Shown: positions 531-61,781 of the stretch, piece by piece
How the letters are laid out: every line of letters begins with the position of its first letter
Position numbering within the stretch: the first letter of the stretch is position 1
IMG/VR virus record: IMGVR_UViG_3300005663_000033
Span: 49,444 to 113,443 of that record
Origin: a virus
Direction: 5' to 3' (one strand)
DNA: 64,000 bases
Made by a program: the position numbers and the translations under genes
Notes under the pieces: model-generated
Database searches by the model: none
Told to the model about the DNA's origin: nothing
What the model saw: the letters and a program-made list of their open reading frames with translations, nothing else

Positions 531-603
531 GCCCCTGTCGTCTAGTGGACTAGGATAGCTGTTTTTCAGGCAGCGGACCGGAGTTCGAATCTCCGCAGGG
601 GTA
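531..603 (+). tRNA. tRNA-Glu (anticodon TTC), CCA not encoded
   Basis: Cloverleaf: acceptor GCCCCTG/CAGGGGT, anticodon stem GCTGT/GCAGC with loop TTTTCAG, T-arm CGGAG-TTCGAAT-CTCCG. Confidence 0.9.
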
Positions 604-1566: not shown

Positions 1567-1639
1567 GGGTTGGTAGCTCAGTTGGTAGAGCAACGGCCTT
1601 TTAAGCCGTAGGCCGTGGGTTCGAGTCCCACCCGACCCA
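1567..1639 (+). tRNA. tRNA-Lys (anticodon TTT), CCA not encoded
   Basis: GGGTTGG/CCGACCC acceptor, D-arm GCTCAGTTGGTAGAGC, ACGGC-CTTTTAA-GCCGT, GTGGG-TTCGAGT-CCCAC. Confidence 0.95.
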
Positions 1640-2521: not shown

Positions 2522-2754
2522 TAGTCTATCAAATAATAGCTAAAGGCCATTCGGCAAACTTCGGAGGTAGACTCCAGGCAATCGTATCGAAAGAACTCTA
2601 CACATCTCCTCCCGGAGACGAAGAAAAGGAAAGATTCCTAAAGAAGTGCATCAAATGCGAGGGAGCAGCAGACCTAAAGAGTCTTGATCCGGATAACGTA
2701 ATAACAATTATCGTAGTGCCTTACGAACTAATAGATAACGGAGGATTACTGTGA
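2518..2754 (+). CDS. hypothetical protein
   Basis: 4-nt overlaps at both ends. Confidence 0.6.
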   Translation: MIVYQIIAKGHSANFGGRLQAIVSKELYTSPPGDEEKERFLKKCIKCEGAADLKSLDPDNVITIIVVPYELIDNGGLL

Positions 2755-3317
2755 ACGCAGCCGAGAGATCAAGACATCTGGCGCACAGGAGGCTCGAAGA
2801 GTATGTGTCCGGTGGACATCGTCCAGAACGGACACTTGTAATTATTGATATGCAGACTGATTTTTACGATAAAGATGAGATAATTCCCAACATTTGTTCA
2901 CTAATCCAGTACGCCAGACAGAAAATATGGGCGATTATCGTTGTTGAATATGAAGGGCGCGGTAACACAGACGACGCGATTATTCAAGCTCTCGATGAAT
3001 ATCCACACAAGGAAACTGTATATAAACAGGGAATGGATGGAGGCAAAAAGGTATTGGATTGTATTAATAGTCACCCATCATGGCCGTTAGATCTTTTAGT
3101 TTGCGGTATTTATGGCCACGCATGTGTACCCGAAACCGTATCTGGGTTATTCAAATCGAGTGATTTAGTGGAAATTAGCGTGGTAACCGATGCGGTATTC
3201 AAATACTACTATCCACAGACTAAAATGGACGAACACGATCGACATCCAGAATGGATGATAACCATGAAGAATGTTCTAATTGACGAGGAGAGTGAAGTTG
3301 CGTCCCACACAGAATAG
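2751..3317 (+). CDS. isochorismatase-family cysteine hydrolase (nicotinamidase-like)
   Basis: LVIIDMQTDF (catalytic Asp), VYK (Lys), VCGIYGHACV (Cys). Confidence 0.8.
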   Translation: MNAAERSRHLAHRRLEEYVSGGHRPERTLVIIDMQTDFYDKDEIIPNICSLIQYARQKIWAIIVVEYEGRGNTDDAIIQALDEYPHKETVYKQGMDGGKKVLDCINSHPSWPLDLLVCGIYGHACVPETVSGLFKSSDLVEISVVTDAVFKYYYPQTKMDEHDRHPEWMITMKNVLIDEESEVASHTE

Positions 3318-3334
3318 ATATTGGAGAAACTATA

Positions 3335-3691
3335 ATGGCCTTAATAAACCTATTAGGTATTCGCCCAACAGCGTGGTCTGTTTTATATGGGCTTCAAGCC
3401 TACAATGACTGGAAAGGATATGAATTTTCCGCCTGGTATAACGGGCGCGAATGCAGCATTTGTATGCACAAAACCCTGGGTAAAAATAAAACTCTGTGTA
3501 TAGTGTTTGGTGAACCAAGACGTACGGATGGTGTTTTTGTGGATTCGTGGATATGTGTGTTGAATAATTTTATGAATCCACCAACACTAAAAGACTACAC
3601 AGAACAAGCCTACGAAGACAGACATTGGTTTACAACAATAGACGGGGCCATAACCTATATTCTTGGTCTTGCGAAACAAAATAGTGAGTAA
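3335..3691 (+). CDS. hypothetical protein
   Basis: GGAG SD; ORF track. Confidence 0.65.
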   Translation: MALINLLGIRPTAWSVLYGLQAYNDWKGYEFSAWYNGRECSICMHKTLGKNKTLCIVFGEPRRTDGVFVDSWICVLNNFMNPPTLKDYTEQAYEDRHWFTTIDGAITYILGLAKQNSE

Positions 3692-3753
3692 ATATCCAAC
3701 CAAGGAGAATACTGATCCGAATAAAACGTGGAAAATCAAAAGGAGTTTGAACG

Positions 3754-3933
3754 ATGAACGACACGGACAGAAGCCAGTGGGTTGATAATGACGAAGGTCT
3801 TTATAATTTATGGAAGTCCTCCGGGATGAATAAGAGGGCGTGGATCAAAGCTAATAGGGCAATGATTGACGAAGTGACTAACAATGTGACAAGTTCTCGG
3901 AAACCGGCTCACTACCTAGAATATGGTGAATAA
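3754..3933 (+). CDS. small hypothetical protein (59 aa, not in ORF track)
   Basis: AAGGAG SD; reads MNDTDRSQWVDNDEGLYNLW...HYLEYGE. Confidence 0.6.
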   Translation: MNDTDRSQWVDNDEGLYNLWKSSGMNKRAWIKANRAMIDEVTNNVTSSRKPAHYLEYGE

Positions 3934-3949
3934 GGTATAAAGAAGGAGA

Positions 3950-4165
3950 TTGATAATGTACCAAGGCCAACCAAGTCCTGAGCATAAGTTGTTCGCAGCG
4001 TACCACCATCACGAGTATGGCTCAACGCAGTGGGTATTTTGGTCAAATGTGTTCCCGACAGAATCACAAGTGGTCACGGCGCTCGGCATCATGTTTGAAC
4101 CAGAACTTGATGAATTTATCGATATTGAAGAAATAGATCAAATTCACACGGTAGAGCTTTCGTAA
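3950..4165 (+). CDS. hypothetical protein
   Basis: AAGGAG SD upstream. Confidence 0.55.
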   Translation: MIMYQGQPSPEHKLFAAYHHHEYGSTQWVFWSNVFPTESQVVTALGIMFEPELDEFIDIEEIDQIHTVELS

Positions 4166-4334
4166 CTTTTAATGAAAAAGAAAGGGGCTAACGTGAATAG
4201 TGAAATCCAGTCTAAAGGAACAATCATTAGTGCAAAGATGCTGATTTCAGATGGGCAGATGAGGATATGAAAGAGTAAGCGGTGTGTAGCCGCTATAAGA
4301 AGGGCAATTAAGCCCCATTTTAAGGAGATCAAAG

Positions 4335-4565
4335 ATGATCAATGTTACGTTGGGAACGAATAGTGGAGCTGGACTCCCATGCCGCATTCCTATCGTCGAG
4401 GGCACGACGCTTGAAAAGTTCCTCGAAGTGTCGTTTGATGGTGATGTTAATGATTTTACCATCCGAGTCCGTTGTAATGGTACGAGCGTTGAAGCGCACA
4501 GCGACTACGTTCTCCAGGATGGAGATAGAATCTCATTAGCACCCATTAAAGTAGATGGGTCGTGA
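4335..4565 (+). CDS. ubiquitin-like beta-grasp protein (Ubl; ThiS/MoaD superfamily)
   Basis: 76 aa; GTTLEKFL...IRVRCNG...YVLQDGDRISL pattern; ends KVDG-S; TAAGGAG SD; first gene of the E2/JAB/E1 cluster. Confidence 0.85.
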   Translation: MINVTLGTNSGAGLPCRIPIVEGTTLEKFLEVSFDGDVNDFTIRVRCNGTSVEAHSDYVLQDGDRISLAPIKVDGS

Positions 4566-4584
4566 TGCTGTAGCCGTACGATCT

Positions 4585-4618
4585 GGGGTGGGGGTGTGTC
4601 CCCCACCCCTTTTTATTT
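4585..4618 (+). terminator. strong intrinsic terminator between Ubl and E2-like gene
   Basis: GGGGTGGGGG-TGTGT-CCCCCACCCC perfect 10-bp stem followed by TTTTTATTT. Confidence 0.85.
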
Positions 4619-4631
4619 CTGGGAATTCACT

Positions 4632-5594
4632 ATGAACGAAAAACTCATAAGGCGCGCCGCTAAAAAGTATAGAGATTGGATAGTCGAAAAGTCACAAGAA
4701 ATAAACTCCGTATCAGAAGTAACGATTCGATCATATCTAGAAACCCTATATCAAAAGTCTGAAGAGATGCAGAAGTGGTCCGGTCGTATCCTAAAAGGCA
4801 TAAGACAACGTGTCCAAAAAGACACATGGAAGCCAAACGCACTCCACATGGGTCTTCCAAATAAAAGCATATATAGGGGAATCGCCAATGGAATGGTTCC
4901 AGACCTGGGTAGGGACATCATATCCTATACAAAAAACGTAGTCTCCATGTTAAAGGATATGACCGCAGGGAACGACACTATCTTTCTCTCACCAAAAGAA
5001 GCGATTGAAGAAATCAGAATCATCAGTCAGACGTGGGATAAGGTTGAATTCAGACGAAATATGCTTTCTGTACGAATCAACAAAGTAACACTCTCTGACG
5101 ACAAAGAAGAGGTAGAACTCGGTGACTTCTGGATAAATTTACATCTTGACAACCTACCAGAAGGACTAACAATTCAATCCATAAATAAGGTTATGTCTTC
5201 TAGGAAATTTTTCCATCCCCATGTAAAACATGATAAATTATGTACTGGAGATGGCACAAATATGAACAACGGAAATCCAATGGGAGAAGCCCTTTCTGAA
5301 GGAAGGTTGGAGGATTATTTTAGGATAGTCGAAGCAATTCTGAGAACATACAACAAAGAGTCCCCCCATGAAGAACTAGTCGCATGGTATGATCCTGGCT
5401 CGGAAGATAATCACGAAAATGAGTTCCATTGTGTGGGGTGTGATGAGTGGTGTCATTGCGACGATGGTCTGTGGTGCGAAGGATGTAGTACTATTTATTG
5501 TAACGATTGCGCAGATGGTGTTATTTGCATTGATTGTGAAAATTGGCGTTGCGGAGAATGTAATACAACGTGTATTGGATGTAGCGAATCCTAA
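4632..5594 (+). CDS. prokaryotic E2 (UBC-fold)-like protein with start of Cys-rich zinc-binding tail
   Basis: FFHPHVKHDKLCTGDG resembles the E2 HPN...C active-site signature; CxxC repeats at the C-terminus; lies between Ubl and JAB. Confidence 0.7.
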   Translation: MNEKLIRRAAKKYRDWIVEKSQEINSVSEVTIRSYLETLYQKSEEMQKWSGRILKGIRQRVQKDTWKPNALHMGLPNKSIYRGIANGMVPDLGRDIISYTKNVVSMLKDMTAGNDTIFLSPKEAIEEIRIISQTWDKVEFRRNMLSVRINKVTLSDDKEEVELGDFWINLHLDNLPEGLTIQSINKVMSSRKFFHPHVKHDKLCTGDGTNMNNGNPMGEALSEGRLEDYFRIVEAILRTYNKESPHEELVAWYDPGSEDNHENEFHCVGCDEWCHCDDGLWCEGCSTIYCNDCADGVICIDCENWRCGECNTTCIGCSES

Positions 5595-5967
5595 TGTATG
5601 CCACGACACGTATTGCAAATCTTGCCTAGAGCACACTTGTGTGTCCTGCAATGAAAAATGTTGTGACTCATGCGTACAGTCCTGCGCTGGTTGCGGTGAT
5701 ACCATGTGCGATGACTGCAATACTTCGTGTGAGTGTTGCGGTGACGGTTGCTGCGGAGATTGTATTGAAGATCAAACTTGTAGCAAATGCGAAGGTTATA
5801 TCTGCAAGAGTTGTAAGATTACTTGCGGCGTATGCGATAAAATATTCTGCAAATCTTGTGGAGATAACGAATGCACAGATTGTGGAGTTCCCATGTGCGA
5901 TTCTTGTGTTGCTGAACACGAGTGTTTGCTTACAGGAATCAAGCCCTCGACTCAAAGCTCGCAGTAA
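5593..5967 (+). pseudogene. out-of-frame continuation of the E2 Cys-rich (CxxC repeat) tail
   Basis: CxxC periodicity resumes in the +1 frame at the TCC-TAA stop; no SD or own start seen. Confidence 0.65.
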
Positions 5968-5981
5968 TAAGGAGAAGAAAA

Positions 5982-6908
5982 ATGGCGAAAACAGAAGAAT
6001 TTCTAAAACCTAAAGTAACGTTTGGTGATACATTACGAATATCTCCCCTAGCATTCGCAAAGATGATATTCTGGAGAGACTGCGGAGACACTGAAGTAGC
6101 GGCATACGCAACTACCCACACAGACGACCCCTTGTTTATTACAGACTTTCGATTAATCAAACAAGAATGCACAAACATAACGTTTGATATCGACAAAAAC
6201 GATTTAGCTGAAGATGTAGAACACACACTAGATGATGGGCTATGCCCGTGGATGACACACAATATATTGTGTCACACTCATCCCGGATGTTCACCCTTAC
6301 CGAGCCACAACGACGAAGAAAACTTCAAGAAAGCATTCTCTCATCCGAATTGGGCAATCATGCTAATCATAGCAGAAAATGGAGAAACTTACTGCCGCCT
6401 CAAAATTAATACGGCTCCAGGCGTAGAGAAGCTATTGAAAGTCAGTGTTGACTTTAGCCAGGAATTCGAGGCCTCAAACCACCAATCATGGGACACAGAA
6501 TACAAATCCAAAGTAACCGAGAAGAAATTCCGCATGACAGGAAAAGAGGGGGTGGCGGCGAATAATGCCTTACCCTTTCAGGGAACAGAGGGCTTCCCGT
6601 GTTGGGACTACGAAAAAGAAGATTGGGTCGAGTTTGATAGACAAGGCGAAGGCGGGAATGAAGAAGCTTATGACATAGCTAGTGATTGTTTTTGGGATAG
6701 AGACGGTAACGCTGTGTATTGGTGTGAAGATCACTATGGGTGGTATTTCTTCGATCCAGTAAATGATAAATGGTCTTTCGACGACGCGGACGACGATGAA
6801 AACAGTATCGTAGAGATCGAACGGCCAGACGAGAAATGGGCTGAGCAAGTAGTTGCGTGGGCTGAGAAATTTGCTGATGAGCAAAACATCTGCGTAGGAG
6901 AACAGTAG
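5982..6908 (+). CDS. JAB/JAMM (MPN+) metallopeptidase, deubiquitinase-like, with acidic C-terminal extension
   Basis: Upstream Glu (DTEV) plus HTHPGCSPLPSHND = HxH-x7-S-x2-D; TAAGGAG SD. Confidence 0.85.
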   Translation: MAKTEEFLKPKVTFGDTLRISPLAFAKMIFWRDCGDTEVAAYATTHTDDPLFITDFRLIKQECTNITFDIDKNDLAEDVEHTLDDGLCPWMTHNILCHTHPGCSPLPSHNDEENFKKAFSHPNWAIMLIIAENGETYCRLKINTAPGVEKLLKVSVDFSQEFEASNHQSWDTEYKSKVTEKKFRMTGKEGVAANNALPFQGTEGFPCWDYEKEDWVEFDRQGEGGNEEAYDIASDCFWDRDGNAVYWCEDHYGWYFFDPVNDKWSFDDADDDENSIVEIERPDEKWAEQVVAWAEKFADEQNICVGEQ

Positions 6909-7217
6909 ATGGAGAAATTAAATGACTATATGGGGATAACCTATCCTAGCTTCTTATATTGGAGGATTTGGCGGCGTACCGTCTGGTATCTCTGGAAGAA
7001 GTTTCTGTGTCCAAAAAATGTTCACTTATTCGATGAGGTGTTGTCTAGCGAACACACCCTTGTTTGTGATGTCTGTGGACTGTGTGTTCATATCTCGATA
7101 ATAGAGACTGAAGAAAAAAGTTGGGACAGAGCAGGCAGTGGTTTGTATATTGAAACATCGGCAGTTGAAAAGAGTTACGACAACGACACCCATTGTATTC
7201 AGATATCACAGGAGTAA
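6909..7217 (+). CDS. hypothetical protein within the Ubl operon
   Basis: Abuts JAB stop; C-x4-H...CDVC possible zinc site. Confidence 0.55.
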   Translation: MEKLNDYMGITYPSFLYWRIWRRTVWYLWKKFLCPKNVHLFDEVLSSEHTLVCDVCGLCVHISIIETEEKSWDRAGSGLYIETSAVEKSYDNDTHCIQISQE

Positions 7218-7222
7218 AAATC

Positions 7223-7882
7223 ATGCAGAGTCTAATAGAAAATCGTGACATTCGCCAACGGGAACTGATACCTCCAGAAAAATTGGCAGAGATCAGGGTC
7301 ACAATCGTTGGCGTTGGAAGCATAGGAAGGCAGGTAGCACTCCAATTAGCAGCTATTGGAGTATCAAGGCTCCATTTGGTAGACTTTGACACAGTCTGTC
7401 CAGAAAATCTGGCGGCGCAAGGTTTTTATGAAAGCGATCTCGGACGACCCAAGGTGGACGCCGTCGCGGATATCTGTAGGGCAATCAATTCGGAGATTGT
7501 GACAACCACTGCAAACAGAAAATTCAGGGGATTTGAGTTTACCGGGGGTGTGTTTTTCTGTTGTGCTGACGGAATCGACACCAAAAGGAAGATGTTCGAC
7601 TCTGTCAATAAGCGGGCAGACCTGTTCCTAGATGCTCGTATGAGTGCAGAGTATATAAGGGTGTTCTCTGTCTACGATGATGCGTCCAGGGAATATTATC
7701 CCACAACCTGTTTCCCAGCAGCCGAAGCATTCCAAGGAAGTTGCACGGCGAAAACAACCATATATTGTGCTAACGTCGCAGCGGGTATGCTAGTGGCGCA
7801 ATTCGCTAAGTGGTTGCGAGGATGTGAACTTGACAAAGATGTCGATCTCAATCTGTTAATGAATGAGATGGGGGCAAAATAA
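7223..7882 (+). CDS. E1-like ThiF/MoeB family adenylyltransferase
   Basis: IVGVGSIG nucleotide-binding loop, VDFDTVCPENLAAQ, GRPKV, CADG, DARM; candidate catalytic Cys in GSCTAK; AGGAG SD. Confidence 0.9.
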   Translation: MQSLIENRDIRQRELIPPEKLAEIRVTIVGVGSIGRQVALQLAAIGVSRLHLVDFDTVCPENLAAQGFYESDLGRPKVDAVADICRAINSEIVTTTANRKFRGFEFTGGVFFCCADGIDTKRKMFDSVNKRADLFLDARMSAEYIRVFSVYDDASREYYPTTCFPAAEAFQGSCTAKTTIYCANVAAGMLVAQFAKWLRGCELDKDVDLNLLMNEMGAK

Positions 7883-8496: not shown

Positions 8497-8920
8497 TTAT
8501 ATGGAATTCTCAGAAGCCATAGAAAACTTGACACCAAAAGAACTTGAATGGTGGACTAATGAGTGGGATCGTGTCATAGACGCCTACGATGACAATCCAG
8601 AAAATGCTGATGATGATTCTCTTTGTCAAGATTTTTCTGTACAAAAAGACGAGAAACTCGTGTGGTTTCACGACGACGAAAGCGGAAATCCAGATAAAAT
8701 TGGAAATGTCGTCCAGCGATTCTTAAAACAGTTCCGCCCAAACGAATGTTTTTGGTTAACATGGGCCTCTTGGTGTTCTAAACCTCGCATTGGCGAATTT
8801 GGCGGTGGCGCAATTTTTGTTACAGCGGATGAAATTAAATGGCACAACGCCCATACCTGGACAGAACAAATGCGAGAAGAATGGCGAAAGAATCAGGAGC
8901 CTAGTAATGGCTCATCCTGA
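8486..8920 (+). CDS. hypothetical protein
   Basis: Overlapping ORF; CSKPRIGEFGGGA motif. Confidence 0.7.
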   Translation: MANNYMEFSEAIENLTPKELEWWTNEWDRVIDAYDDNPENADDDSLCQDFSVQKDEKLVWFHDDESGNPDKIGNVVQRFLKQFRPNECFWLTWASWCSKPRIGEFGGGAIFVTADEIKWHNAHTWTEQMREEWRKNQEPSNGSS

Positions 8921-9716
8921 CTATTGGTATGACAAATGGATGGCTAGTACTCAATCCAATGCTTGTGTCGTCAGGGTAACTAATCAATGCAATCAAAAGT
9001 GCAGACACTGCTGTTTTAGGTCTGGCCCCGAACACGTTGGTCAAATGTCTGTAAAAATGTGCGAAAAAATCAACGCCTGGGTTCCGGTTAGGGTGGCCCT
9101 CAACATCATGGGTGGTGAATTCAGTGTCTTGGACAATTATCCGGAAATGCTTGCGGCATTGTCTCGCGACAAAAACATAGTTCATCTAGTCACAAACGGA
9201 TTTTGGACAAACGACAAAGAAGGTATTTACAAATTCTTTTCAGCCATAAGGGGTATAAAAAGAACGTCTGAATGTGTCAGTGTAACCGTATCCAATGATC
9301 ACTGGCACAAAAAGTCGACAGATGATCTGATAAAAATATTGAAAAATAACGGATTGGATGTGACAATAGAAACCGCTAGAAACTTAGGACCCAAGGGGGA
9401 CAGAATTTCACCAATTGGTCGCGCATGGGACAATAAACTCGTTCCTTGTAATAGTATCCATTGTTCTTGTGAAGTAATGTCCAGTATGATCATCACAGAA
9501 GATGGAATGGTGAATAGATGTCCATATGGGTATTTCCCGTGGAAACACTTCAGCGAAACCACTTGGAATGAAGCCCAAGAATATATCTGGGGATGGCGTT
9601 CAGAGAAACTCTCAGAAGGAATGAACTGTCATTTATGCATGGAAGTAGATAATGCAAATCGTTGTAGATTTGTTAGCAACAAAACATCTCTAGCGGGAGA
9701 ACTAAGTAATGTCTAG
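8907..9716 (+). CDS. radical SAM protein with SPASM/twitch-like tail
   Basis: CNQKCRHC (CxxxCxxC), MGGE, LVTNG, C-terminal DGMVNRCP...CHLC. Confidence 0.85.
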   Translation: MAHPDYWYDKWMASTQSNACVVRVTNQCNQKCRHCCFRSGPEHVGQMSVKMCEKINAWVPVRVALNIMGGEFSVLDNYPEMLAALSRDKNIVHLVTNGFWTNDKEGIYKFFSAIRGIKRTSECVSVTVSNDHWHKKSTDDLIKILKNNGLDVTIETARNLGPKGDRISPIGRAWDNKLVPCNSIHCSCEVMSSMIITEDGMVNRCPYGYFPWKHFSETTWNEAQEYIWGWRSEKLSEGMNCHLCMEVDNANRCRFVSNKTSLAGELSNV

Positions 9717-14802: not shown

Positions 14803-16362
14803 ATGAAGGACTTCGCCACGGATTTTGCCGATTATTGTTGTTCAGGTCACGCCCTATTACATGTAGAAACCTTCGAAAAAGATCGGGTAATAAGCGAGAT
14901 TGCGAAGGTGGCTGACGCTATGAATCGTAAGGTCTATATTTGGTCTATCGCTCGTGGATGGATAGACAAGAATGGTGGTTCTGTATGTGGTGTCAAACCC
15001 TCTGCTCAGATCGAAGAACACTTGCAGGCAATCGTTGAATTCCCGAATAGCGTTATCTGCATACTGCGCGACTTTGGCATATATATGCAACACGAAACCT
15101 ATTCCTATGATGATGTTGTTGTTGGATGGTTGGATGAGCTTCGCAAAATCGTAGGATCAGTCAACCAAAATATCGTTTTCGTTGGTCCAGATTTTAAGGT
15201 CCCCAAACCATTGCTGCATGATATTACGAAGATTGATTTTGATCTACCAGATAATGATCAAATCAGTGAACGAATCGATTTTGTTTGTAGTGATGTGGTC
15301 AAAGCCAATGGGGAAAAGTTCGAACCAAATAAAGATATAATTCCACATATCATTGATTCTTGTCGTGGTATGACTTCACAACAGACGGTCGATCGTGTTG
15401 CTCTAGCCCTTCGAAAACACAAGGACTTGAATGAGGATGCCGTGCGCACCATCGTCAGAGAAAAGGCCAGCATTATTCGTGCATCTGGACTCCTCACATA
15501 CATAGAACCGCCAAAAGGAGGACTAGCTAATGTCGGTGGATATGACGCACTAAAACAACACGTCCTCCTAGATCAACCATGTTTTACTCAAGAGGCGAGG
15601 AAGTTTGGAATAGAATTCCCCAGAGGACTTATGCTTGTTGGAATACCGGGCTGTGGAAAAACGCTGCTGTCTCTAGCCATCGCATCGGAACTTGGTTTGC
15701 CGCTCATCTCCATGGACGTTGGCAATCTAATGGATAAATATGTTGGTGAGTCCGAGGGCAATATGAGGGAAGCAATTAAGATGTTAGAAAGTATCGCCCC
15801 GTGTGTTTTACAGTTGGACGAAATAGAGAAAGGTTTTGGTGGCACGTCTGACATGGATGGTGGTTCGTCTCGTCGAGTATTCGGCACCTTCATCAAGTGG
15901 CTAAACGACAGAGAATCCCCCGTATACGTTGTTGCCACAGCCAACCAAGTCCAATCTCTCCCACCTGAGTTTTGTCGTAAGGGTCGTTTCGATGAGATAT
16001 ACGGACTCGATCTACCAAACTTCGAAGAACGTAAAGAAATCTTCTGTATTCATCTCTCGAAGAGGGAAAGAAAACCAAGTGATTTTGAAGTTGAAAAGTT
16101 ATCTGAAATCAGCCAAGGGTATACAGGAAGTGACGTTGAACAAACTATCAAACTTGGTCTAAAGATGGCTTTCTCAGAAAACAGCGAGCTTACAACAACC
16201 CATCTCATGAAAGCTATTTCTAATATAGTTCCACTTTCCAAAACAGAAGAGAGCCGAATTAAGGAAATCAGACAGTGGTGTAAGATGCATGCGCGGGCTG
16301 CAAATCCAAGTAAGAAAAATAGTCCACGTGGGGACAACGCCAGGACAGTCTCACTAAACTAA
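14803..16362 (+). CDS. Ycf46-like AAA+ ATPase
   Basis: Degenerate N-terminal AAA-like domain plus active domain: GIPGCGKT (Walker A), LQLDEIEK (Walker B), ATAN, LPPEFCRKGRFDE. Confidence 0.9.
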   Translation: MKDFATDFADYCCSGHALLHVETFEKDRVISEIAKVADAMNRKVYIWSIARGWIDKNGGSVCGVKPSAQIEEHLQAIVEFPNSVICILRDFGIYMQHETYSYDDVVVGWLDELRKIVGSVNQNIVFVGPDFKVPKPLLHDITKIDFDLPDNDQISERIDFVCSDVVKANGEKFEPNKDIIPHIIDSCRGMTSQQTVDRVALALRKHKDLNEDAVRTIVREKASIIRASGLLTYIEPPKGGLANVGGYDALKQHVLLDQPCFTQEARKFGIEFPRGLMLVGIPGCGKTLLSLAIASELGLPLISMDVGNLMDKYVGESEGNMREAIKMLESIAPCVLQLDEIEKGFGGTSDMDGGSSRRVFGTFIKWLNDRESPVYVVATANQVQSLPPEFCRKGRFDEIYGLDLPNFEERKEIFCIHLSKRERKPSDFEVEKLSEISQGYTGSDVEQTIKLGLKMAFSENSELTTTHLMKAISNIVPLSKTEESRIKEIRQWCKMHARAANPSKKNSPRGDNARTVSLN

Positions 16363-18881: not shown

Positions 18882-19394
18882 ATGAAACTTATAGACATTC
18901 CACAAATGAGTAGACCTGGATATGCTACTGACCATTTTCTATATATGTTACCAAAAACTATCAAACAATATCAAGAAGAACGACTTTGTCCTCTTAATCT
19001 GGAACCTGATTTCCAAAGGGTTCACGTTTGGACTCCCGAACAGCAAACTCGATATATGGAATTCATTTTACGAGGAGGAAACTCATCGAAGGATTTCTAC
19101 TTCAATTGTCCTGGTTGGCAGGGTTCCTATGATGGACCATTTGAACTCGTTGACGGCAAACAACGACTTGCTGCCTGTTTGGGTTTTATGAACGGAACAG
19201 TTCCCATTTTTGACGGATTCTATATTGGAGACTTTACTGACAAACCATTCAATGTTCTCCTGCGTTTCCATATCAACAATCTAAAAACTCGTAAAGAAGT
19301 TCTCCAATGGTATCTGGATATTAATTCTGGTGGAGTTGTTCACACCGCCGATGAACTAGACAAAGTAAGAGAATTACTAGAAAAGGAAATTTAA
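18882..19394 (+). CDS. stand-alone DUF262 (ParB-like) protein
   Basis: PDFQRVHVW and ELVDGKQRL motifs. Confidence 0.8.
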   Translation: MKLIDIPQMSRPGYATDHFLYMLPKTIKQYQEERLCPLNLEPDFQRVHVWTPEQQTRYMEFILRGGNSSKDFYFNCPGWQGSYDGPFELVDGKQRLAACLGFMNGTVPIFDGFYIGDFTDKPFNVLLRFHINNLKTRKEVLQWYLDINSGGVVHTADELDKVRELLEKEI

Positions 19395-51578: not shown

Positions 51579-52518
51579 ATGTAGTGCCAGCGCAATCGGA
51601 CGATATAATCATTGTTCATTTTCATATTTTCTACACTACATCTTGGGCATGGAATCTAAAGCTGGAAAAGCTGCTCTTCAGGGGAGTATCGTTCACCAAG
51701 CCTTTGATTGGATGGCAAAATTGCGGAAACGCGGTAAGACAAACGTAGACCCGATGTGGTTGTTGGATCGTGCTTGGGATGAATTTACTATCAAATCTCC
51801 CGAGTTCGGACTTCGTCGCGTGACCACTCGCATAGACAAGGAAACTGGTGGATTCAAAGAAGCAGCAGACTTCAAAAAATGCCGAATTGCCATGGAAGTA
51901 GTATTAGCTGATTCTTACGCCAATCCATATAACAATAAGGTCGTCGATTCTGAACGATGGTTTGCTTTGGAAATTCCGGGGGATGAGTGGAAGTGTCTTG
52001 ACAAAGATGGCAACGAACATCAATTCGCCGTACGTGGTTTCATCGACTTAGTGAATGAAATAGATGACGGAACAATTGAGATCATTGATTGGAAAACAGG
52101 AAGTCGCAAAGACTACTACACACAACAGCCCATAGATGAGGCCGCATTGATGAGAGAAATACAACCAAGGCTTTATCATTTGGCAGCATATTTTTTATAC
52201 CCCGAATATAAAAACATACTTATTACGTTTTACTATACAAATGAGGGTGGTCCAATTACAATAGCTTTATCTCAAGATGATTTAGCAATGACTATAGCTG
52301 CTTTATATCGTTTTTTCATAACGATTAGTCATGATACATTGATTCTTAGAAATCGTCAATGGCAATGTCGCATGTGCAATTTTAATAAGAACGACGTGTG
52401 TTGCAGAGTATGGAGTGATTTACATACAATGGGTGGTCAATATGTTATAGATCAATACGCCAAACTTAGTTGTAAGGATCAATTGGCGATAGGAAAATCG
52501 GAGAAGCAAGATGAGTAA
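51565..52518 (+). CDS. PD-(D/E)XK nuclease (Cas4/AddB-like, Fe-S cysteines)
   Basis: SASAI...C, GSIVH, RGFIDL, IIDWKTG, QPRLY, CRMC..C. Confidence 0.8.
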   Translation: MRVVKCSASAIGRYNHCSFSYFLHYILGMESKAGKAALQGSIVHQAFDWMAKLRKRGKTNVDPMWLLDRAWDEFTIKSPEFGLRRVTTRIDKETGGFKEAADFKKCRIAMEVVLADSYANPYNNKVVDSERWFALEIPGDEWKCLDKDGNEHQFAVRGFIDLVNEIDDGTIEIIDWKTGSRKDYYTQQPIDEAALMREIQPRLYHLAAYFLYPEYKNILITFYYTNEGGPITIALSQDDLAMTIAALYRFFITISHDTLILRNRQWQCRMCNFNKNDVCCRVWSDLHTMGGQYVIDQYAKLSCKDQLAIGKSEKQDE

Positions 52519-54853
52519 AAAAACGTATATTCCGTTGCACGCGCATAGTTTCTATAGCCTTCTTGACGGGCTTTGTTCGCCCAAGGATATCATAGATAGA
52601 TGCGTAGAGTTGGGATTACCAGCCTGCGCAATTACAGACCACGGTTCGATTGCCGGTATGAAGGTGTTCTATGACGCAGCCAAGAAGAAAAAGATTAAGC
52701 CGATTATAGGATGTGAGATGTACATATGTGAACAAGATCCAACTATTAAAAATAATGACAACAATCGACGGCATCACCTCATAGTGTTGGCAAAAAATGA
52801 TCAAGGCATCAAGGACTTAATGGCTTTGGTTAGCGAATCTAATCAACCTCACCATTTTTATCGTAAGCCTCGCATTCATCTGGCGGGTATTGCACCATTC
52901 GCAAAACGTGGCAATCTTATATTTTTAACCGCTTGTATTGGTGGCGAACTACCAATGTCTTTATTTACTGATTTTAAGGAAGCGGCTATAGCGAGTCAGC
53001 ATGGAACTCATGTGAAAGCTGTGAGGCAGCATCTGAAGCCAAATTGGAAAGATGTTGGCAAAGCAATTATTCATAAGCATGTGGCAACATTCGGGAAAGG
53101 TAACTATTATCTAGAATTGCAAGATGAAGGAATGGATATCCAGACTGTTGTTGTGGAATGCTTGAGGGAACTAAGTAAAGATACCGGAATTCCAACTGTA
53201 GCCACCATTGATTCTCATTATGCGAGAAAAGAAGATGCAGAAGATCAGCGACTATTGCTTTATGCCCAACTGCACACAACTAAAGAAGCCCAGGAATACA
53301 GAATTGCTAGTGGCCAGGATGTTATGGACTTTTTTGTCTCGGACAATTATCACATTCCTTCTTATGAAGAAATGCGTCAAAAATTCACAGAAGCAGAACT
53401 TCAAACAACATTAGACATCGCAAACCAAATACAATATTCATCGTTAGGTCATGATCCATATCTTCCTGTTTTTACCAATGACGAATCAAAGAAACTCGGA
53501 CTCGATTCAGATGGTTATCTAAGTTATCTATGTATAGAAGGTGCCAAAAAGAAATTAATTCACCTCGACCCATCCCGAAAGAAAATCTACTGGAAGAGAT
53601 TGCAGAGAGAACTTGTTGTTATCCGCGAAGCTAAATTAGCGGATTATTTTCTGATCGTTTGGGATGCATGTAAATTCGTTGATAAAAACAACGGACCGAG
53701 GGGCAAGGGGCGCGGTTCTGGTGCTGGATCACTGATAAACTATCTCACCGGAATTACTGGTATAGACCCCATCGAATATGGTCTATACTTTGAGAGATTC
53801 TATAACATGAGTCGTAACATCCCTCCCCACTTTGATGTCGGGCAAATTGACTTTATGTCATGGATGTCTGACAACTTTGAACTGCTACACACAAGAGATG
53901 TTGATGAAGAACGTAAGATGGTGGCACAACAATTAGCAAGACGAATAAAGCAATACAACGTTGAATTCACATCGAGCATGAGAACCGAAGTGGAATGGAT
54001 TGACGAGAAGAATCCTAGAATGTGGATGTATCTGTGGGATATGATTAAGCTTAAACCAGCGAATAATCCATCCAATTCTCATTTGGCGTTTGGGCTAGGC
54101 ATTACTATAGTATCCCCTGAATTCGACGAAGAGAAGCGTGTCAAGATACACAATGGTCATATTAGTTTGCCAGATATCGACACGGATATTGGTGTAGTTT
54201 TTCGTAGCCAAGTAATTGTATACTTAAAGGAGCGATGGGGCGAAGAATACGTTGCTCAAATGATTACCTTTGGTAGACTTCAGGGTAAAGCAGCACTCAA
54301 AGAAGTGTTTCGTGCTCACCCAGATACTGTTAAGCATTTGATGAAGGTGAAAGCTCTTAAAGAAGGTAAGGACGCGAATGATATTTGCATGAGTCCACAT
54401 GATCTATGTAATGATATCACAAAACATATTCCAGATGAAGCAACAATAGCCGACGAATTGAGGCAGGCTAGAGAAGAACAAGGTGATGATTATGGGATTC
54501 TACAATGGGCGATACATCATGTAGAACAGGTTCAAACTGCTTATGAATGGTACAAACCATTATTCGACCAAGCCATGAGAATCGAAGGAACCAAAAAATC
54601 CCAATCAAAACACGCTGCTGGTGTAGTAATTGCAGATAGACCAATTGAAGAACTTGTGCCATTGGTTTATGATGCCAAGAATAAAGATCGTGTTGTTGGC
54701 CTGGAGATGTATAACGCTGAAGACATGGGTGCTGTCAAGTTTGATTTTCTTGGAGTTGTAGCATTAGATAAAATGTGGAAAGCTCAGGATTTAATAAATG
54801 GTTGTGACGAGGAAGAAGTATTAGAAGAAGGATTGATCAATGTCATAGATTAA
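52511..54853 (+). CDS. dnaE: DNA polymerase III alpha, N-terminal part (PHP + catalytic palm)
   Basis: LHAHSFYSLLDG, AITDHG, GRGSGAGSL, FERF, PDIDTD, HAAGVVI, KFDFLG; stops shortly after KFDFLG. Confidence 0.92.
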   Translation: MSKKTYIPLHAHSFYSLLDGLCSPKDIIDRCVELGLPACAITDHGSIAGMKVFYDAAKKKKIKPIIGCEMYICEQDPTIKNNDNNRRHHLIVLAKNDQGIKDLMALVSESNQPHHFYRKPRIHLAGIAPFAKRGNLIFLTACIGGELPMSLFTDFKEAAIASQHGTHVKAVRQHLKPNWKDVGKAIIHKHVATFGKGNYYLELQDEGMDIQTVVVECLRELSKDTGIPTVATIDSHYARKEDAEDQRLLLYAQLHTTKEAQEYRIASGQDVMDFFVSDNYHIPSYEEMRQKFTEAELQTTLDIANQIQYSSLGHDPYLPVFTNDESKKLGLDSDGYLSYLCIEGAKKKLIHLDPSRKKIYWKRLQRELVVIREAKLADYFLIVWDACKFVDKNNGPRGKGRGSGAGSLINYLTGITGIDPIEYGLYFERFYNMSRNIPPHFDVGQIDFMSWMSDNFELLHTRDVDEERKMVAQQLARRIKQYNVEFTSSMRTEVEWIDEKNPRMWMYLWDMIKLKPANNPSNSHLAFGLGITIVSPEFDEEKRVKIHNGHISLPDIDTDIGVVFRSQVIVYLKERWGEEYVAQMITFGRLQGKAALKEVFRAHPDTVKHLMKVKALKEGKDANDICMSPHDLCNDITKHIPDEATIADELRQAREEQGDDYGILQWAIHHVEQVQTAYEWYKPLFDQAMRIEGTKKSQSKHAAGVVIADRPIEELVPLVYDAKNKDRVVGLEMYNAEDMGAVKFDFLGVVALDKMWKAQDLINGCDEEEVLEEGLINVID

Positions 54854-59831: not shown

Positions 59832-61781
59832 ATGATCACATTCGCAAAATGCAAGTGCAAGGTCGAAAAGGGTAGATTTAGTATTAATGATATCCATCTA
59901 GATTGTCCTGCTGTATGGCAGCTAATTGCTAGTGGCCATACGGTTGGTGTCTTTCAGCTTGAGAAGAATCTTGGCCAAGATTGGTCCAAAAGGGTTAGAC
60001 CAGATAGCCTAGAAGAGCTTGCTGCGCTTACTGCTTTACTTCGTCCAGGACCACTTGAATCAAATATGACGCAAGATTATGTGGACATCAAATTCGGACG
60101 CAAAAAACAATCATATCTACATCCGGCTTTGAAACCAATTCTTGAACCTACATTCGGATGCCTTGTCTACCAAGAACAGGCTATTCGTATTGCTACTGAC
60201 ATTGCTGGACTCAGTCCTGAAAGTGCAGACGAACTCAGAAAAGCGATTGGTAAGAAAAAGCCGGAACTCATGGCCAAAGTTAAGAGCAAATTTGTCAAAG
60301 GCGCTATAGAATATGGTAAGATCGGCCAGGATGTGGCTGAAGAAATATTCGGATGGATTGAAAAATGTCAGAGATACTCATTTAACAAAAGCCACGCAGT
60401 AAGTTATGGTATGATTGCATATCAAACTGCATGGTTAAAGTGCCACTTTCCACACGAGTTCTTTGCAAGTTATCTGACCTATTCCCAATATAAAGGCGAT
60501 CCAAAGGAAGAAATTTACAAACTGGTACAGGATTCTAGATTGTTTGGGGTTGATATTCTGCCTCCAGACATTCGACGTGGCAATATTCATTTTCGGATGA
60601 CTCAAAAACCACAAAAAAGTATAGCGTTTGGTCTGGCGCACGTTAGGGGTGTTGGAGCATCAGCCATCCAGAAAATCGTCGCAGCGGGCCTTAAAACATC
60701 AGGAATGGACCCCCTAGATGAGGCCGTGATGAATCACGGCGGCAGTGCATCTTGTGCCGCAAAAACATCGACTGTTGAATCTATTTCAGATGAAGCAACA
60801 GCAACACCATCCTGTCTCAAAACTTGGGCAGATTTTTTAGCAGCGGTTCCAAGCTTTCACAGAAATGTCGGCATTGCCCTAATTAAATCCGGCGCTTGTG
60901 ATTGCTATAATATGGGACGCAGCGAAATGGTACGAGAACTTGAAGTAGTACTTGGAACTGCGGTTCGTGATTCGACTGGCAAAAAGGTCGAAATCAAAGG
61001 ATTAACAAGTAAAGAGAGGATCTATTTTTTCGATCATCTACAACAGAGTGAGATGACTACTCAGGAAATTTTAAGACAGATGGCTCAACCTCCGGGGGAT
61101 AAGACAAAAACTATTGGACAAATGACCAAAGGGGAGTTGGTGTTCGCAGCAAAGGCATATCTAGATCAAGCTGATGCAGCTTTCGACGGCATAATCGATG
61201 GGGATGGAAAATTTGTTTACACATCCACAGAAGAGAAAGAAGCTTGGCTTGAAAACATAGGTAGTCGCACTAAGAAAAAAATAGAAGAACTAATGTTGCA
61301 GAATGGTTATAAGGATGTAGTGGTCAAACCTCCGTGTTCTAGTGACGCCAGACGCAGAATAATTGCAGCCAAAGCGGAGATGCTTGAAGGATCGCTTAGT
61401 GACACGAATACGGCTAAAGCTACCGCAGAGAAACATTTTTTGGGTATCGCGTTATCTTGTTCTCAGGCTGATGATGCAGATGATACTCTTGCTACTCATA
61501 CGTGTTTGGACGTAGCCAAAGCACCTAATAAAGAAGATATTGTAGTTTGTGCAATTATAGATAGCGTCAAACACACAAAAACCAAGAGAGGAAAAAATCC
61601 AGGTCAGCCAATGTGTTTTTTAACTATATCAGATTCTACATATTCGATAGATCACGCCGTTGTGTTTCCAGATGCGTTTGGTAAATTAAAAGCATTTTGT
61701 AAAGATGATCTGATTTGTTTGGTTTATGGACAAAAGCAAAAGGGTAGCTTTATAATAAAAGATATTCAAAAATTGATGTGA
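59832..61781 (+). CDS. dnaE: DNA polymerase III alpha, C-terminal part (fingers, HhH, OB fold)
   Basis: GVFQLE, ALLRPGP, LVYQEQ, ADELRKAIGKK, YSFNKSHA, LPPDI, GLAHVRGVG, EKHFLG, MCFLTISD. Confidence 0.92.
   Translation: MITFAKCKCKVEKGRFSINDIHLDCPAVWQLIASGHTVGVFQLEKNLGQDWSKRVRPDSLEELAALTALLRPGPLESNMTQDYVDIKFGRKKQSYLHPALKPILEPTFGCLVYQEQAIRIATDIAGLSPESADELRKAIGKKKPELMAKVKSKFVKGAIEYGKIGQDVAEEIFGWIEKCQRYSFNKSHAVSYGMIAYQTAWLKCHFPHEFFASYLTYSQYKGDPKEEIYKLVQDSRLFGVDILPPDIRRGNIHFRMTQKPQKSIAFGLAHVRGVGASAIQKIVAAGLKTSGMDPLDEAVMNHGGSASCAAKTSTVESISDEATATPSCLKTWADFLAAVPSFHRNVGIALIKSGACDCYNMGRSEMVRELEVVLGTAVRDSTGKKVEIKGLTSKERIYFFDHLQQSEMTTQEILRQMAQPPGDKTKTIGQMTKGELVFAAKAYLDQADAAFDGIIDGDGKFVYTSTEEKEAWLENIGSRTKKKIEELMLQNGYKDVVVKPPCSSDARRRIIAAKAEMLEGSLSDTNTAKATAEKHFLGIALSCSQADDADDTLATHTCLDVAKAPNKEDIVVCAIIDSVKHTKTKRGKNPGQPMCFLTISDSTYSIDHAVVFPDAFGKLKAFCKDDLICLVYGQKQKGSFIIKDIQKLM

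Follow-up and report, generated by a model that had tools for sequence, protein, structure and literature searches.

A cassette of four co-oriented genes and one small ORF, located at 4335-7882 of the viral record stretch analysed here (64,000 nucleotides of IMGVR_UViG_3300005663_000033, referred to as the window), is best read as a self-contained, phage-borne ubiquitin-like conjugation cascade. We assign this reading a probability of about 70%; no thioester or conjugate has been shown. The genes are arranged in the order Ubl, E2, JAB, E1 (Table 1), and an ORF check recovered all four, together with the small ORF, as the preliminary description had reported. The reading rests on matches of E1, JAB and Ubl to family models with every catalytic motif invariant, on the UBC fold found for the E2 core in an unbiased structure search, with which Foldseek agrees weakly, and on the glycine plus cap that ends the tag in all 28 homologues, the same rule as in Type II Bil.

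To our knowledge, bacterial ubiquitin-like conjugation has so far been studied as a host anti-phage defence (CBASS, Bil, Bub). Here, what appears to be the full machinery lies on the opposite side of the conflict, in a whole clade of phages with genomes of 160-180 kb, and also on mobile elements that are very common in Planctomycetota. The combination of a classical His-Pro-x...Cys E2 with a fused zinc-finger rod would in effect be an E2 with a built-in E3, a layout that we found neither catalogued nor described. If conjugation proceeds as predicted, the cassette would provide a compact four-protein system to study E3-free target choice, a new handle on the rewiring of host proteins by phages and mobile elements, and a further data point on the evolution of E2-E3 cooperation.

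Table 1. Features of the cassette and of its downstream region (window coordinates)
Feature	Coordinates	Strand	Description
Ubl (tag precursor)	4335..4565	+	76 aa; C-terminus K72-V-D-G75-S76
Terminator-like hairpin and T-run	4585..4619	+	10-bp stem, 9 G-C pairs; between Ubl stop and E2 start
E2-like protein, first frame	4632..5594	+	ATG 4632, stop 5594; 320 aa
Rest of E2 zinc tail	5590..5967	+ (+1 frame)	125 codons, 31 Cys, 13 CxxC; end H-E-C-L-L as in homologues
JAB/JAMM metallopeptidase	5982..6908	+	ATG 5982; 308 aa; acidic Trp-rich C-terminal extension, roughly 150 aa
Small Cys/His-containing ORF	6909..7217	+	102 aa
Minimal E1	7223..7882	+	Single ThiF-type adenylation domain, 219 aa
Radical SAM gene	8790-9716		Downstream of cassette
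Classic-clade AAA+ ATPase	14803..16362	+	Pfam AAA 3e-29; followed by DUF3150 and DUF1257 genes

Components of the cassette

Judged by its sequence matches, the Ubl is ThiS/MoaD-like; there is no structure model of its fold. The Pfam ThiS model matched it below the cut-off (E=0.02) and matched 21 of 29 Ubl homologues individually, again sub-threshold (best 7e-4), and the nearest ESM Atlas cluster was MoaD/ThiS with a feature-match score of 0.92. Searching PDB chain sequences with the Ubl gave no match. Residues K72 and G75 are invariant among homologues. The tag ends in a single Gly after Asp or Glu, followed by a cap, and not in Gly-Gly; G75 is never terminal, at least one residue following the Gly in each homologue. 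For Type II Bil, the Gly-plus-cap rule has been shown experimentally (PMC10557695). Translational fusion of the Ubl to a downstream 80-aa protein is seen in 8 related loci. Elsewhere this protein has a gene of its own, and neither this genome nor any cellular copy contains it. Since the tag is fused in some relatives, the JAB would have to trim it. The hairpin that follows the Ubl gene is part of a -29.6 kcal/mol fold (z -2.3), and 10 of 25 related loci have a similar hairpin with a T-run after this gene. The element probably serves as an attenuator, keeping the tag more abundant than the enzymes, a function inferred rather than observed.

The E2 assignment is the weakest of the four, because no Pfam or NCBIfam model matches the protein; PHROG and PADLOC were equally without a match, for it and for 9 relatives. 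Neither PDB sequences searched with a profile of the E2 core nor GenBank phages yielded a match, and E2 patterns found nothing in GTDB genomes, the cellular relatives having surfaced solely via E1. In the first-frame product, residues 3-111 form a helical hairpin and a UBC-like core follows at about 115-255; the frame also takes in the first 6 CxxC pairs of the tail. The core carries the motif H195-P196-H197...C204, and the His195 and Cys204 codons lie at 5214 and 5241, exactly where the preliminary description had located an E2-type active site. Across 35 E2 sequences, H195, P196, C204 and G206 are invariant and H197 is nearly so, and the cellular relatives retain T-H-P-H-V...L-C-x-G. No conserved His follows C204; the conserved His residues all precede the Cys.

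In AF2 models of the E2 (pLDDT 88) and of its core alone (pLDDT 83, pTM 0.77), HPH-x6-C falls in the loop that strand 4 leads into. The core was modelled separately because the N-terminal helical hairpin dominated the matches when the whole protein was used for fold searches. When the core was compared with 48,161 PDB chains by VIA-align, the best match was UBE2S (1zdn_A; Z 7.4, rmsd 3.0 over 112 aa, 20% identity), and the top 50 were almost all UBC, UEV or RWD folds, so that the UBC fold proposed earlier for this protein withstands the comparison. A bacterial CBASS E2 (8hsb_B) scored Z 5.5. Foldseek, the check suggested earlier, gave weak agreement: E2s were among its matches but only at E 0.2-1, never significant. 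A UBC-type core is thus supported by a moderate structural match, within the limits of a predicted model. The E2 carries its zinc array as a fusion; the array has 5 to 11 sites and no above-threshold family match. Among PDB sequences, nothing beyond weak matches to FYVE, PHD, B-box and RING (E 0.006-0.1) was obtained for the tail. A role of this tail as a built-in adaptor fits the data and is untested.

The two remaining enzymes are the ThiF/E1 and JAMM proteins that they had been taken for. The JAB falls just below the cut-off of Pfam Prok-JAB (5e-5; 23.5 bits against 25) and is also matched by PADLOC JAB models; a search against PDB chain sequences returned no match. It contains the full JAMM site E38...H98-T-H100-x7-S108-x2-D111, in which E38, H98, H100, S108 and D111 are invariant in 27 homologues. 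The E1, which likely starts at ATG 7223 rather than TTG 7193, is matched by Pfam ThiF (PF00899) at 7e-23 (81.5 bits against a cut-off of 28.1) and by PADLOC Cap2-type E1 (E1-E2) models at up to 1e-17. It has neither a rhodanese domain nor the separate Cys domain of canonical E1s. A single ThiF domain of about 217 aa is found in all 24 sequences, and R6, R9 and Q10 (R-x-x-R-Q), GxGxxG, D52, K75, D114, C172 and C180 are invariant. The nearest solved sequences (MccB, MoeB, PaaA, UBA7 and ThiF) are about equidistant. A profile search of PDB sequences (E<=1e-5) reached BubCD at about 1e-8 and no entry named as a Bil E1. We presume that C172 lies in the crossover loop, going by its spacing from D114 and by ThiF numbering, not by an alignment or model; it may be the thioester-holding Cys, a suggestion that depends on this spacing alone.

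Viral setting, distribution and known relatives

The record encodes portal, terminase and replication genes, which bears out the viral origin claimed for it and not the alternative of a cellular chromosome. The cassette is surrounded by early and replication genes, with the portal and terminase far away. The same gene order was found in 8 related IMG/VR records, 37 metagenome contigs and about 50 loci in Planctomycetota MAGs and complete chromosomes. Order was judged in loci long enough to show it and is conserved in every one of these, indicating that the arrangement is not due to chance. Three related virus records are complete genomes with terminal repeats. The cellular loci resemble mobile-element regions (DUF932, DUF2958, DUF3150, recombinases) and not recognised defence islands. 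The cassette is therefore not restricted to phages; it is a large unannotated family common to phages and Planctomycetota mobile elements. Our literature search found no description of it in either, which is not proof that it is undescribed. An Asgard host was considered and rejected. The idea came from an entry labelled 'Ca. Heimdallarchaeota bin6 chromosome', which holds the best cellular E1 match. This entry consists of contigs joined by 100-N spacers, with the virus-like pieces on separate contigs, and offers no evidence of integration.

Among the annotated neighbours of the cassette we found no nucleotidyltransferase gene and, in keeping with the preliminary description, no sulfurtransferase, thiamine, molybdopterin or cysteine genes, in a check that was not exhaustive. 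Here, as in at least 9 related loci, the cassette is followed downstream by a radical SAM gene, which many phage loci lack. Clustering the neighbours of the cellular loci surfaced none, without a dedicated search for one there. Further downstream, the AAA+ ATPase has sub-threshold NCBIfam matches to CDC48, PAN, FtsH and IteA. All 8 related virus records carry it, on the downstream side of the cassette wherever its position was worked out, and in 12 cellular loci it lies no more than 8 kb from the cassette. It counts merely as a candidate partner and has not been shown to be part of the cassette.

In its working, the cassette resembles BilABCD Types I/II (PMC10557695; 10.1101/2023.09.04.556158). 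Both consist of four separate genes in the order Ubl, E2, JAB-type DUB, E1, both tags end in Gly and a short non-conserved cap for removal by the DUB, and neither includes a separate E3. The cassette nevertheless fails the membership features of the Bil E1 and E2. In the Bil E2 a conserved His comes after the Cys (CEHH in Type II) and the classical His upstream is missing, whereas the cassette E2 shows the reverse, His-Pro-x before Cys, and adds the helical hairpin and the poly-CxxC tail. The Bil E1 combines inactive and active adenylation domains with an inserted Cys domain; that of the cassette is one 219-aa domain. Moreover, Bil protects cells from phage by tagging a phage protein, whereas no defensive role has been demonstrated for the cassette, whose carriers are phages and mobile elements.

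The Caldiarchaeum cascade (PMC3082918, PMC5654768) shares a classical E2 active site, a zinc-finger element presumably doing the job of an E3, and a JAMM peptidase, which in Caldiarchaeum is Rpn11-like. Its zinc finger is, however, a separate small RING E3, whereas the cassette has a zinc array fused to the E2, and its Ub and E2 are caught by ordinary sequence models. With Type II CBASS Cap2/Cap3 the cassette shares a JAB peptidase, a partner of E2 fold and a similar E1 adenylation domain. In CBASS, however, E2 and E1 are fused in Cap2, which conjugates a CD-NTase and not a free Ubl; the cassette encodes them as separate genes on either side of the JAB and has a dedicated Ubl. Bub (6E/DUF6527) operons (PMC11601596) also combine E1, E2, Ubl and peptidase, but they use oxyester (Ser) intermediates, a peptidase-E1 fusion and a serine protease in place of the invariant catalytic Cys and separate, unfused JAMM peptidase seen here. 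The sole earlier phage pairing of Ubl and JAB, that of lambda/T1 tail assembly protein I with the JAB domain of protein K (PMC1779556), belongs to a tail module and, unlike the cassette, lacks E1 and E2. Viral ThiF-family genes are found in Nidhogg Asgard viruses (10.1101/2021.07.29.454249), crAss-like phages and Flavobacterium phages, at 25-30% identity to the cassette E1; these records hold an E1-like gene without a recognised Ubl or E2, and in crAss-like phages it adjoins a metalloprotease. Nor do NCBIfam models place it among PRTRC (ParB-related, ThiF-related) cassettes: TIGR03736 scores 21.5 bits against a cut-off of 144.75, and the other cassette proteins match no PRTRC model.

Proposed mechanism and alternative explanations

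In the proposed cascade, the tag would be produced as a precursor capped after Gly75 by extra residues or the 80-aa protein, the capping being evident from the sequences, and would probably be held in excess over the enzymes by the hairpin. The JAMM peptidase would take off the cap and, by analogy with BilC, probably also strip the tag from its targets. The E1, probably a homodimer, is inferred to adenylate Gly75 and may hold the tag on Cys172. Transfer to Cys204 of the E2, beside His-Pro-His, is predicted from fold and conservation. The E2 would then attach the tag to target lysines without a separate E3, its helical hairpin and C-terminal rod of about 20 CxxC zinc knuckles presumably choosing the target. 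Both a clade of large phages and integrated Planctomycetota elements retain the cassette, and we therefore think that its role most likely lies in conflict between a mobile element and its host, or between rival elements. Whether it tags host or rival proteins or jams a host Ubl defence is neither supported nor excluded. One elaboration, which we regard as rather improbable, makes the cassette the tagging arm of a 'tag-and-unfold' pathway, in which the zinc-finger E2 tags host or rival proteins and the CDC48/PAN-like AAA+ ATPase reads the tag. If true, prokaryotic viruses would possess an equivalent of ubiquitin-Cdc48/proteasome signalling that includes an E2-E3 fusion of its own.

A counter-defensive cassette would jam or reverse a Bil-like or CBASS-like host defence through a decoy tag, a JAB that strips conjugates, or the tagging of defence proteins. 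In favour of this, the bacterial Ubl cascades that have been characterised act against phages (PMC10557695; 10.1101/2023.09.04.556158), a clade of phages conserves the cassette as a gene set, and the homologous Planctomycetota cassettes could be the host-side counterpart. But a decoy or a deconjugase needs no E1 and E2 with intact catalytic residues, and the cellular relatives lie in mobile-element-like regions; PADLOC, moreover, has no model for the E2 or the Ubl. We consider this explanation unlikely. The same two enzymes, whose catalytic residues are invariant in every copy, are left unexplained if the Ubl is merely a removable fusion partner or assembly chaperone freed by the JAB without conjugation, as proposed for lambda/T1. 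This second explanation draws on the only phage precedent for a Ubl-JAB pair (PMC1779556) and on the Ubl fusions in related loci. Given a fused partner missing here and from the cellular copies, and a cassette sited amid early and replication genes, it is very improbable.

The least probable reading that we considered is a sulfur-carrier or small-molecule pathway, in which a ThiS-like tag, ThiF-like activation and JAB trimming as in CysO/Mec+ would feed the downstream radical SAM enzyme. Among families, the tag is best matched by ThiS and the E1 by ThiF/MoeB, and the conservation of the radical SAM gene in many relatives leaves some room for a biosynthetic role. Sulfur-carrier systems (ThiS/ThiF, MoaD/MoeB, CysO/Mec+), however, use a Gly-Gly carrier and a sulfur donor or rhodanese, and have no E2. 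The cassette has [DE]-G plus a cap, no rhodanese domain in its E1 and no sulfur-pathway genes among its annotated neighbours, and a sulfur relay offers no role for an E2 whose active site is conserved; nor is the radical SAM gene constant among the phage loci. A conjugation cascade remains the reading that we prefer.

Frame change in the zinc tail and the accessory ORF

The long CxxC tail given to the E2 in the preliminary description is present, but not as one ORF. In this copy it is interrupted by a +1 frame change at about 5590-5594, with a stop codon at 5592-5594, and resumes in the +1 frame to 5967. In the loci, each of the other 36 full-length E2 homologues is one uninterrupted ORF of 393-478 aa. 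TCC-TAA was considered as the site of a programmed +1 frameshift, which was rejected as the main reading, since the other copies are continuous and the site is no known slippery motif; it is not excluded. The frame change may instead cut the target-binding rod from the E2, the cassette decaying in this phage. The stop falls after just 6 of about 19 CxxC pairs, every other full-length copy is intact, and no credible start codon with a ribosome-binding site could be read in the sequence of the remaining segment. Yet no stop interrupts its 125 codons, all of its Cys pairs are in register, and the remaining cassette genes are all intact, so that a defective copy is possible but doubtful. The open downstream codons suggest that the break is very recent, is an assembly error or is bypassed in translation. 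With the zinc rod split, this copy may be impaired, or the record may be in error. The truncated E2 is present on three contigs, which are not established as independent assemblies.

The small ORF between JAB and E1 has no family match. Its homologues, at 51-60% identity, occupy the same position in loci L003, L011/L012, L022 and L036 and are elsewhere or absent in the other loci; it is an occasional accessory gene of the cassette.

Gene content and viral setting of the cassette

The ORF list and the sequence place five co-oriented genes at the cassette, encoding a ThiS-like tag (Ubl), an E2-like protein, a JAB protein, a small protein, and an E1 enzyme. PADLOC makes the same JAB and E1 calls. 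The histidine and cysteine assigned to the E2-type site in the preliminary description, at 5214 and 5241, are exact against the sequence. We conclude that the phage carries a genuine ubiquitin-like conjugation cassette, which is conserved and close to complete. Its enzymology is inferred with fair confidence, and no claim is made about its targets or biological role.

Coordinates of the cassette genes and other features (window positions, unless a related locus, L, or the source virus record, G000, is named)
Feature	Coordinates	Strand	Remarks
Tag gene	4335-4565	+	76 aa; AAGGAG ribosome-binding site upstream
E2-like gene	ATG 4632 to stop 5594	+	320 aa; no Pfam match
JAB gene	ATG 5982 to 6908	+	308 aa; Pfam Prok-JAB just below threshold
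Small ORF	6909-7217	+	102 aa
E1 gene	ATG 7223 to 7882	+	219 aa; Pfam ThiF domain, 7e-23
80-aa K-G-P-G-T protein, separate gene	L003:7352-7591; L004:7581-7835		
80-aa K-G-P-G-T protein, fused to tag	L007, L013, L014, L015, L029, L033/L038, L042		
Classic-clade AAA+ ATPase	14803-16362		sub-threshold matches to CDC48, PAN, FtsH, IteA
GmrSD_N domain protein	18882-19394		small; ParB-like, DUF262-type
Radical SAM protein	8790-9716		Cx3Cx2C
Radical SAM homologues compared	L002:12022-12786; L010:10022-10786; L007:11382-12164		
Isochorismatase-family hydrolase	2751-3317		Pfam 1e-11
DnaE-type polymerase, two pieces	52511-54853; 59832-61781		about 5 kb apart
tRNA-Glu (TTC)	531-603		phage tRNA gene
tRNA-Lys (TTT)	1567-1639		phage tRNA gene
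Large terminase ORF	G000 3572-6940	-	1,122 aa; L047

The contig, which would have undermined the proposal had it been a cellular chromosome, is viral. A portal gene and a large terminase gene with an HNH insert lie at the left end of the source IMG/VR record (113 kb, estimated 68% complete), and the part of it studied here encodes a split DnaE-type polymerase, a DnaB-type helicase, a primase, a UvsX-like recombinase, and ribonucleotide reductase. The cassette is present in eight related IMG/VR records; three of these represent complete genomes (165-181 kb) that have terminal repeats. The large terminase ORF also matches HNH endonuclease and helicase-like families, which suggests an inserted mobile element or intein. 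The two DnaE pieces match the N- and C-terminal parts of one PHROG (phrog_405).

Fold and zinc tail of the E2-like protein

A search of 5.8 billion proteins returned 35 relatives of the E2-like protein (392-459 aa), on contigs of up to 181 kb. All are unnamed or annotated as hypothetical protein, and no Pfam domain is on record for any of them. Residues H195, P196, C204, and G206 are invariant among the 35. The AlphaFold model (pLDDT 88) has a long helical hairpin; next come one helix and a meander of four strands, then the loop bearing HPH...C and a pair of helices. Because fold searches with the entire model were swamped by hairpin matches, residues 115-262 were modelled separately (pLDDT 83, pTM 0.77), and this core was then searched, with no prefilter, against 48,161 representative PDB chains. 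E2 enzymes and their inactive relatives (UEV/RWD) made up nearly all of the top 50. UBE2S ranked first (Z 7.4; rmsd 3.0 Å over 112 residues); a CBASS E2 from bacteria had Z 5.5. Foldseek with the core listed the same E2s, none of them significant. Since the Z scores are only moderate, the fold call rests on the uniformity of the list, the topology, and the conserved His-Pro-His-x6-Cys in the right loop. A UBC fold is thus supported at the level of predicted models, and its absence, which would have refuted the preliminary description, finds no backing in the almost uniform E2/UEV/RWD list. The protein does not meet sequence-level membership of a catalogued E2 family.

Beyond the core, E2 homologues carry about 20 CxxC pairs at 7-8-residue intervals (median 44 cysteines, which could fill about 11 Zn(Cys)4 sites) and end in H-x-C-L-L. 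The tail is split in the source record's copy: the array halts at the E2 stop codon after six pairs and picks up immediately in the +1 frame, where 125 more codons supply 13 pairs and the normal ending. Each of the 36 other full-length copies from the loci is one uninterrupted ORF (393-478 aa), indicating that the break is peculiar to this record. As the downstream part remains open and in perfect register, we attribute the break to a very recent indel or an assembly error; a recoding site is the less likely explanation.

Tag, JAB, and E1, and their place among known systems

In alignments from related loci, the catalytic residues are all conserved in JAB (E38, H98, H100, S108, D111) and E1 (N-terminal R-x-x-R-Q, GxGxxG, D52, K75, D114). 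E1 has two invariant cysteines, C172 and C180, and is about equidistant by sequence from MccB, MoeB, PaaA, UBA7, ThiF, UBA5, and BubCD. The tag keeps K72 and G75. Its own Pfam match to ThiS is weak; 21 of 29 homologues match ThiS individually, and a language-model search placed it beside a viral MoaD/ThiS cluster. At least one residue follows the glycine in every one of 28 homologues, the extension ranging from a single residue to a nine-residue tail, and at eight loci the tag continues into an entire 80-aa protein, beginning K-G-P-G-T, that other loci encode as a separate gene. With the glycine always capped in these ways, the tag is inferred to be a precursor needing a peptidase. Such a requirement has been shown for the Type II Bil tag by Chambers et al. 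(PMC10557695). The 80-aa protein is helical and is present at 16 phage loci, where it is joined to the tag after the glycine and 1-3 further residues or has its own gene a short way downstream. It is absent from the source genome and all cellular loci and has no family match. Between the tag and E2 genes, a 10-bp G+C-rich hairpin precedes a T-run, and of 25 related loci, 10 have a similar hairpin 3' of their tag gene. We infer that this element is an attenuator holding the tag in excess.

BilABCD is nearest to the cassette in function and layout. However, Bil E2s have no upstream histidine and one downstream, and Bil E1s have two adenylation domains and a Cys domain (PMC10557695); the cassette fails two defining features, one of the E2 and one of the E1. 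It falls outside the five operon types described by Iyer et al. (PMC1779556) and matches neither CBASS, Bub, nor PRTRC. In pairing a classical E2 site with a zinc-finger element, the cassette is reminiscent of the archaeal E1/E2/RING cascade, from which it differs in having the zinc array fused to its E2. ThiF-like genes have been recorded in other viruses (Nidhogg viruses, crAss-like and Flavobacterium phages), in these cases with no recognised tag or E2. We found no published description of the cassette, which is best described as a Bil-like variant with an E2-zinc-finger fusion and a minimal E1.

Cellular relatives, host, and neighbouring genes

An E1 alignment scan of one genome per prokaryote species gave 78 loci, nearly all in Planctomycetota MAGs and complete chromosomes (Phycisphaerae, Pirellulales, Planctomycetaceae, Kuenenia), with a few in Victivallales. 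According to profile searches, about 50 of the 78 keep the tag-E2-JAB-E1 order. The cellular E2s retain T-H-P-H-V...L-C-x-G, and their tail is shorter, with about 10 CxxC pairs. When 1.84 billion representative proteins were searched by profile, 2,500 clusters of this E2 came up, with no Pfam family or name in any of those sampled. The ESM Atlas includes a cluster of the same fold with 2,546 members, mostly from Planctomycetota, and two viral clusters. Some cellular genomes have two cassette copies. The cellular cassettes neighbour DUF932, DUF2958, DUF3150, recombinases, and runs of small co-oriented genes, and these regions look like integrated mobile elements.

In a quick maximum-likelihood E1 tree, the 24 phage rows group together as a single clade (SH-aLRT 100), which lies among Phycisphaerae rows under a midpoint root. 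From sequence alone, this would fit a single old capture and a Planctomycetota host, although the root is not established. The lone non-planctomycete outlier within the phage clade is a record labelled as a Ca. Heimdallarchaeota bin6 chromosome (CP070695.1; L052, L130-L145). Its pieces at about 47.5-93.9 kb and 151.2-173.0 kb are collinear with the source phage (portal 70%, terminase 72%, AAA 67% identity). The "chromosome" consists of contigs strung together by 100-N spacers, and the virus-like pieces sit on separate contigs. It offers nothing firm on the host; viral contigs were probably binned together with the MAG.

In the window, DUF3150 and DUF1257 genes come after the AAA+ ATPase gene. 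The ATPase is encoded in each of the eight related virus records, on the downstream side of the cassette wherever its position was worked out. At 12 cellular loci, a distant homologue (24-34% identity) is encoded no more than 8 kb from the cassette. Since shared ancestry of the element backbones could explain this linkage, the ATPase remains a candidate partner only. The GmrSD_N domain protein is encoded shortly beyond these three genes.

The radical SAM gene downstream of E1 is kept in at least nine related phage loci and has no established link to the cassette; its best match, to YydG-type peptide epimerases, is far below threshold. Two divergent related phages have an in-frame TAG at the same position of this gene, aligned with a Trp codon of the window gene (I-N-R-stop-V/I-P versus I-N-A-W-V-P), which could reflect shared decay, amber suppression, or recoding. 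In most of the related phage loci, a homologue of the isochorismatase-family hydrolase is encoded upstream of the cassette.
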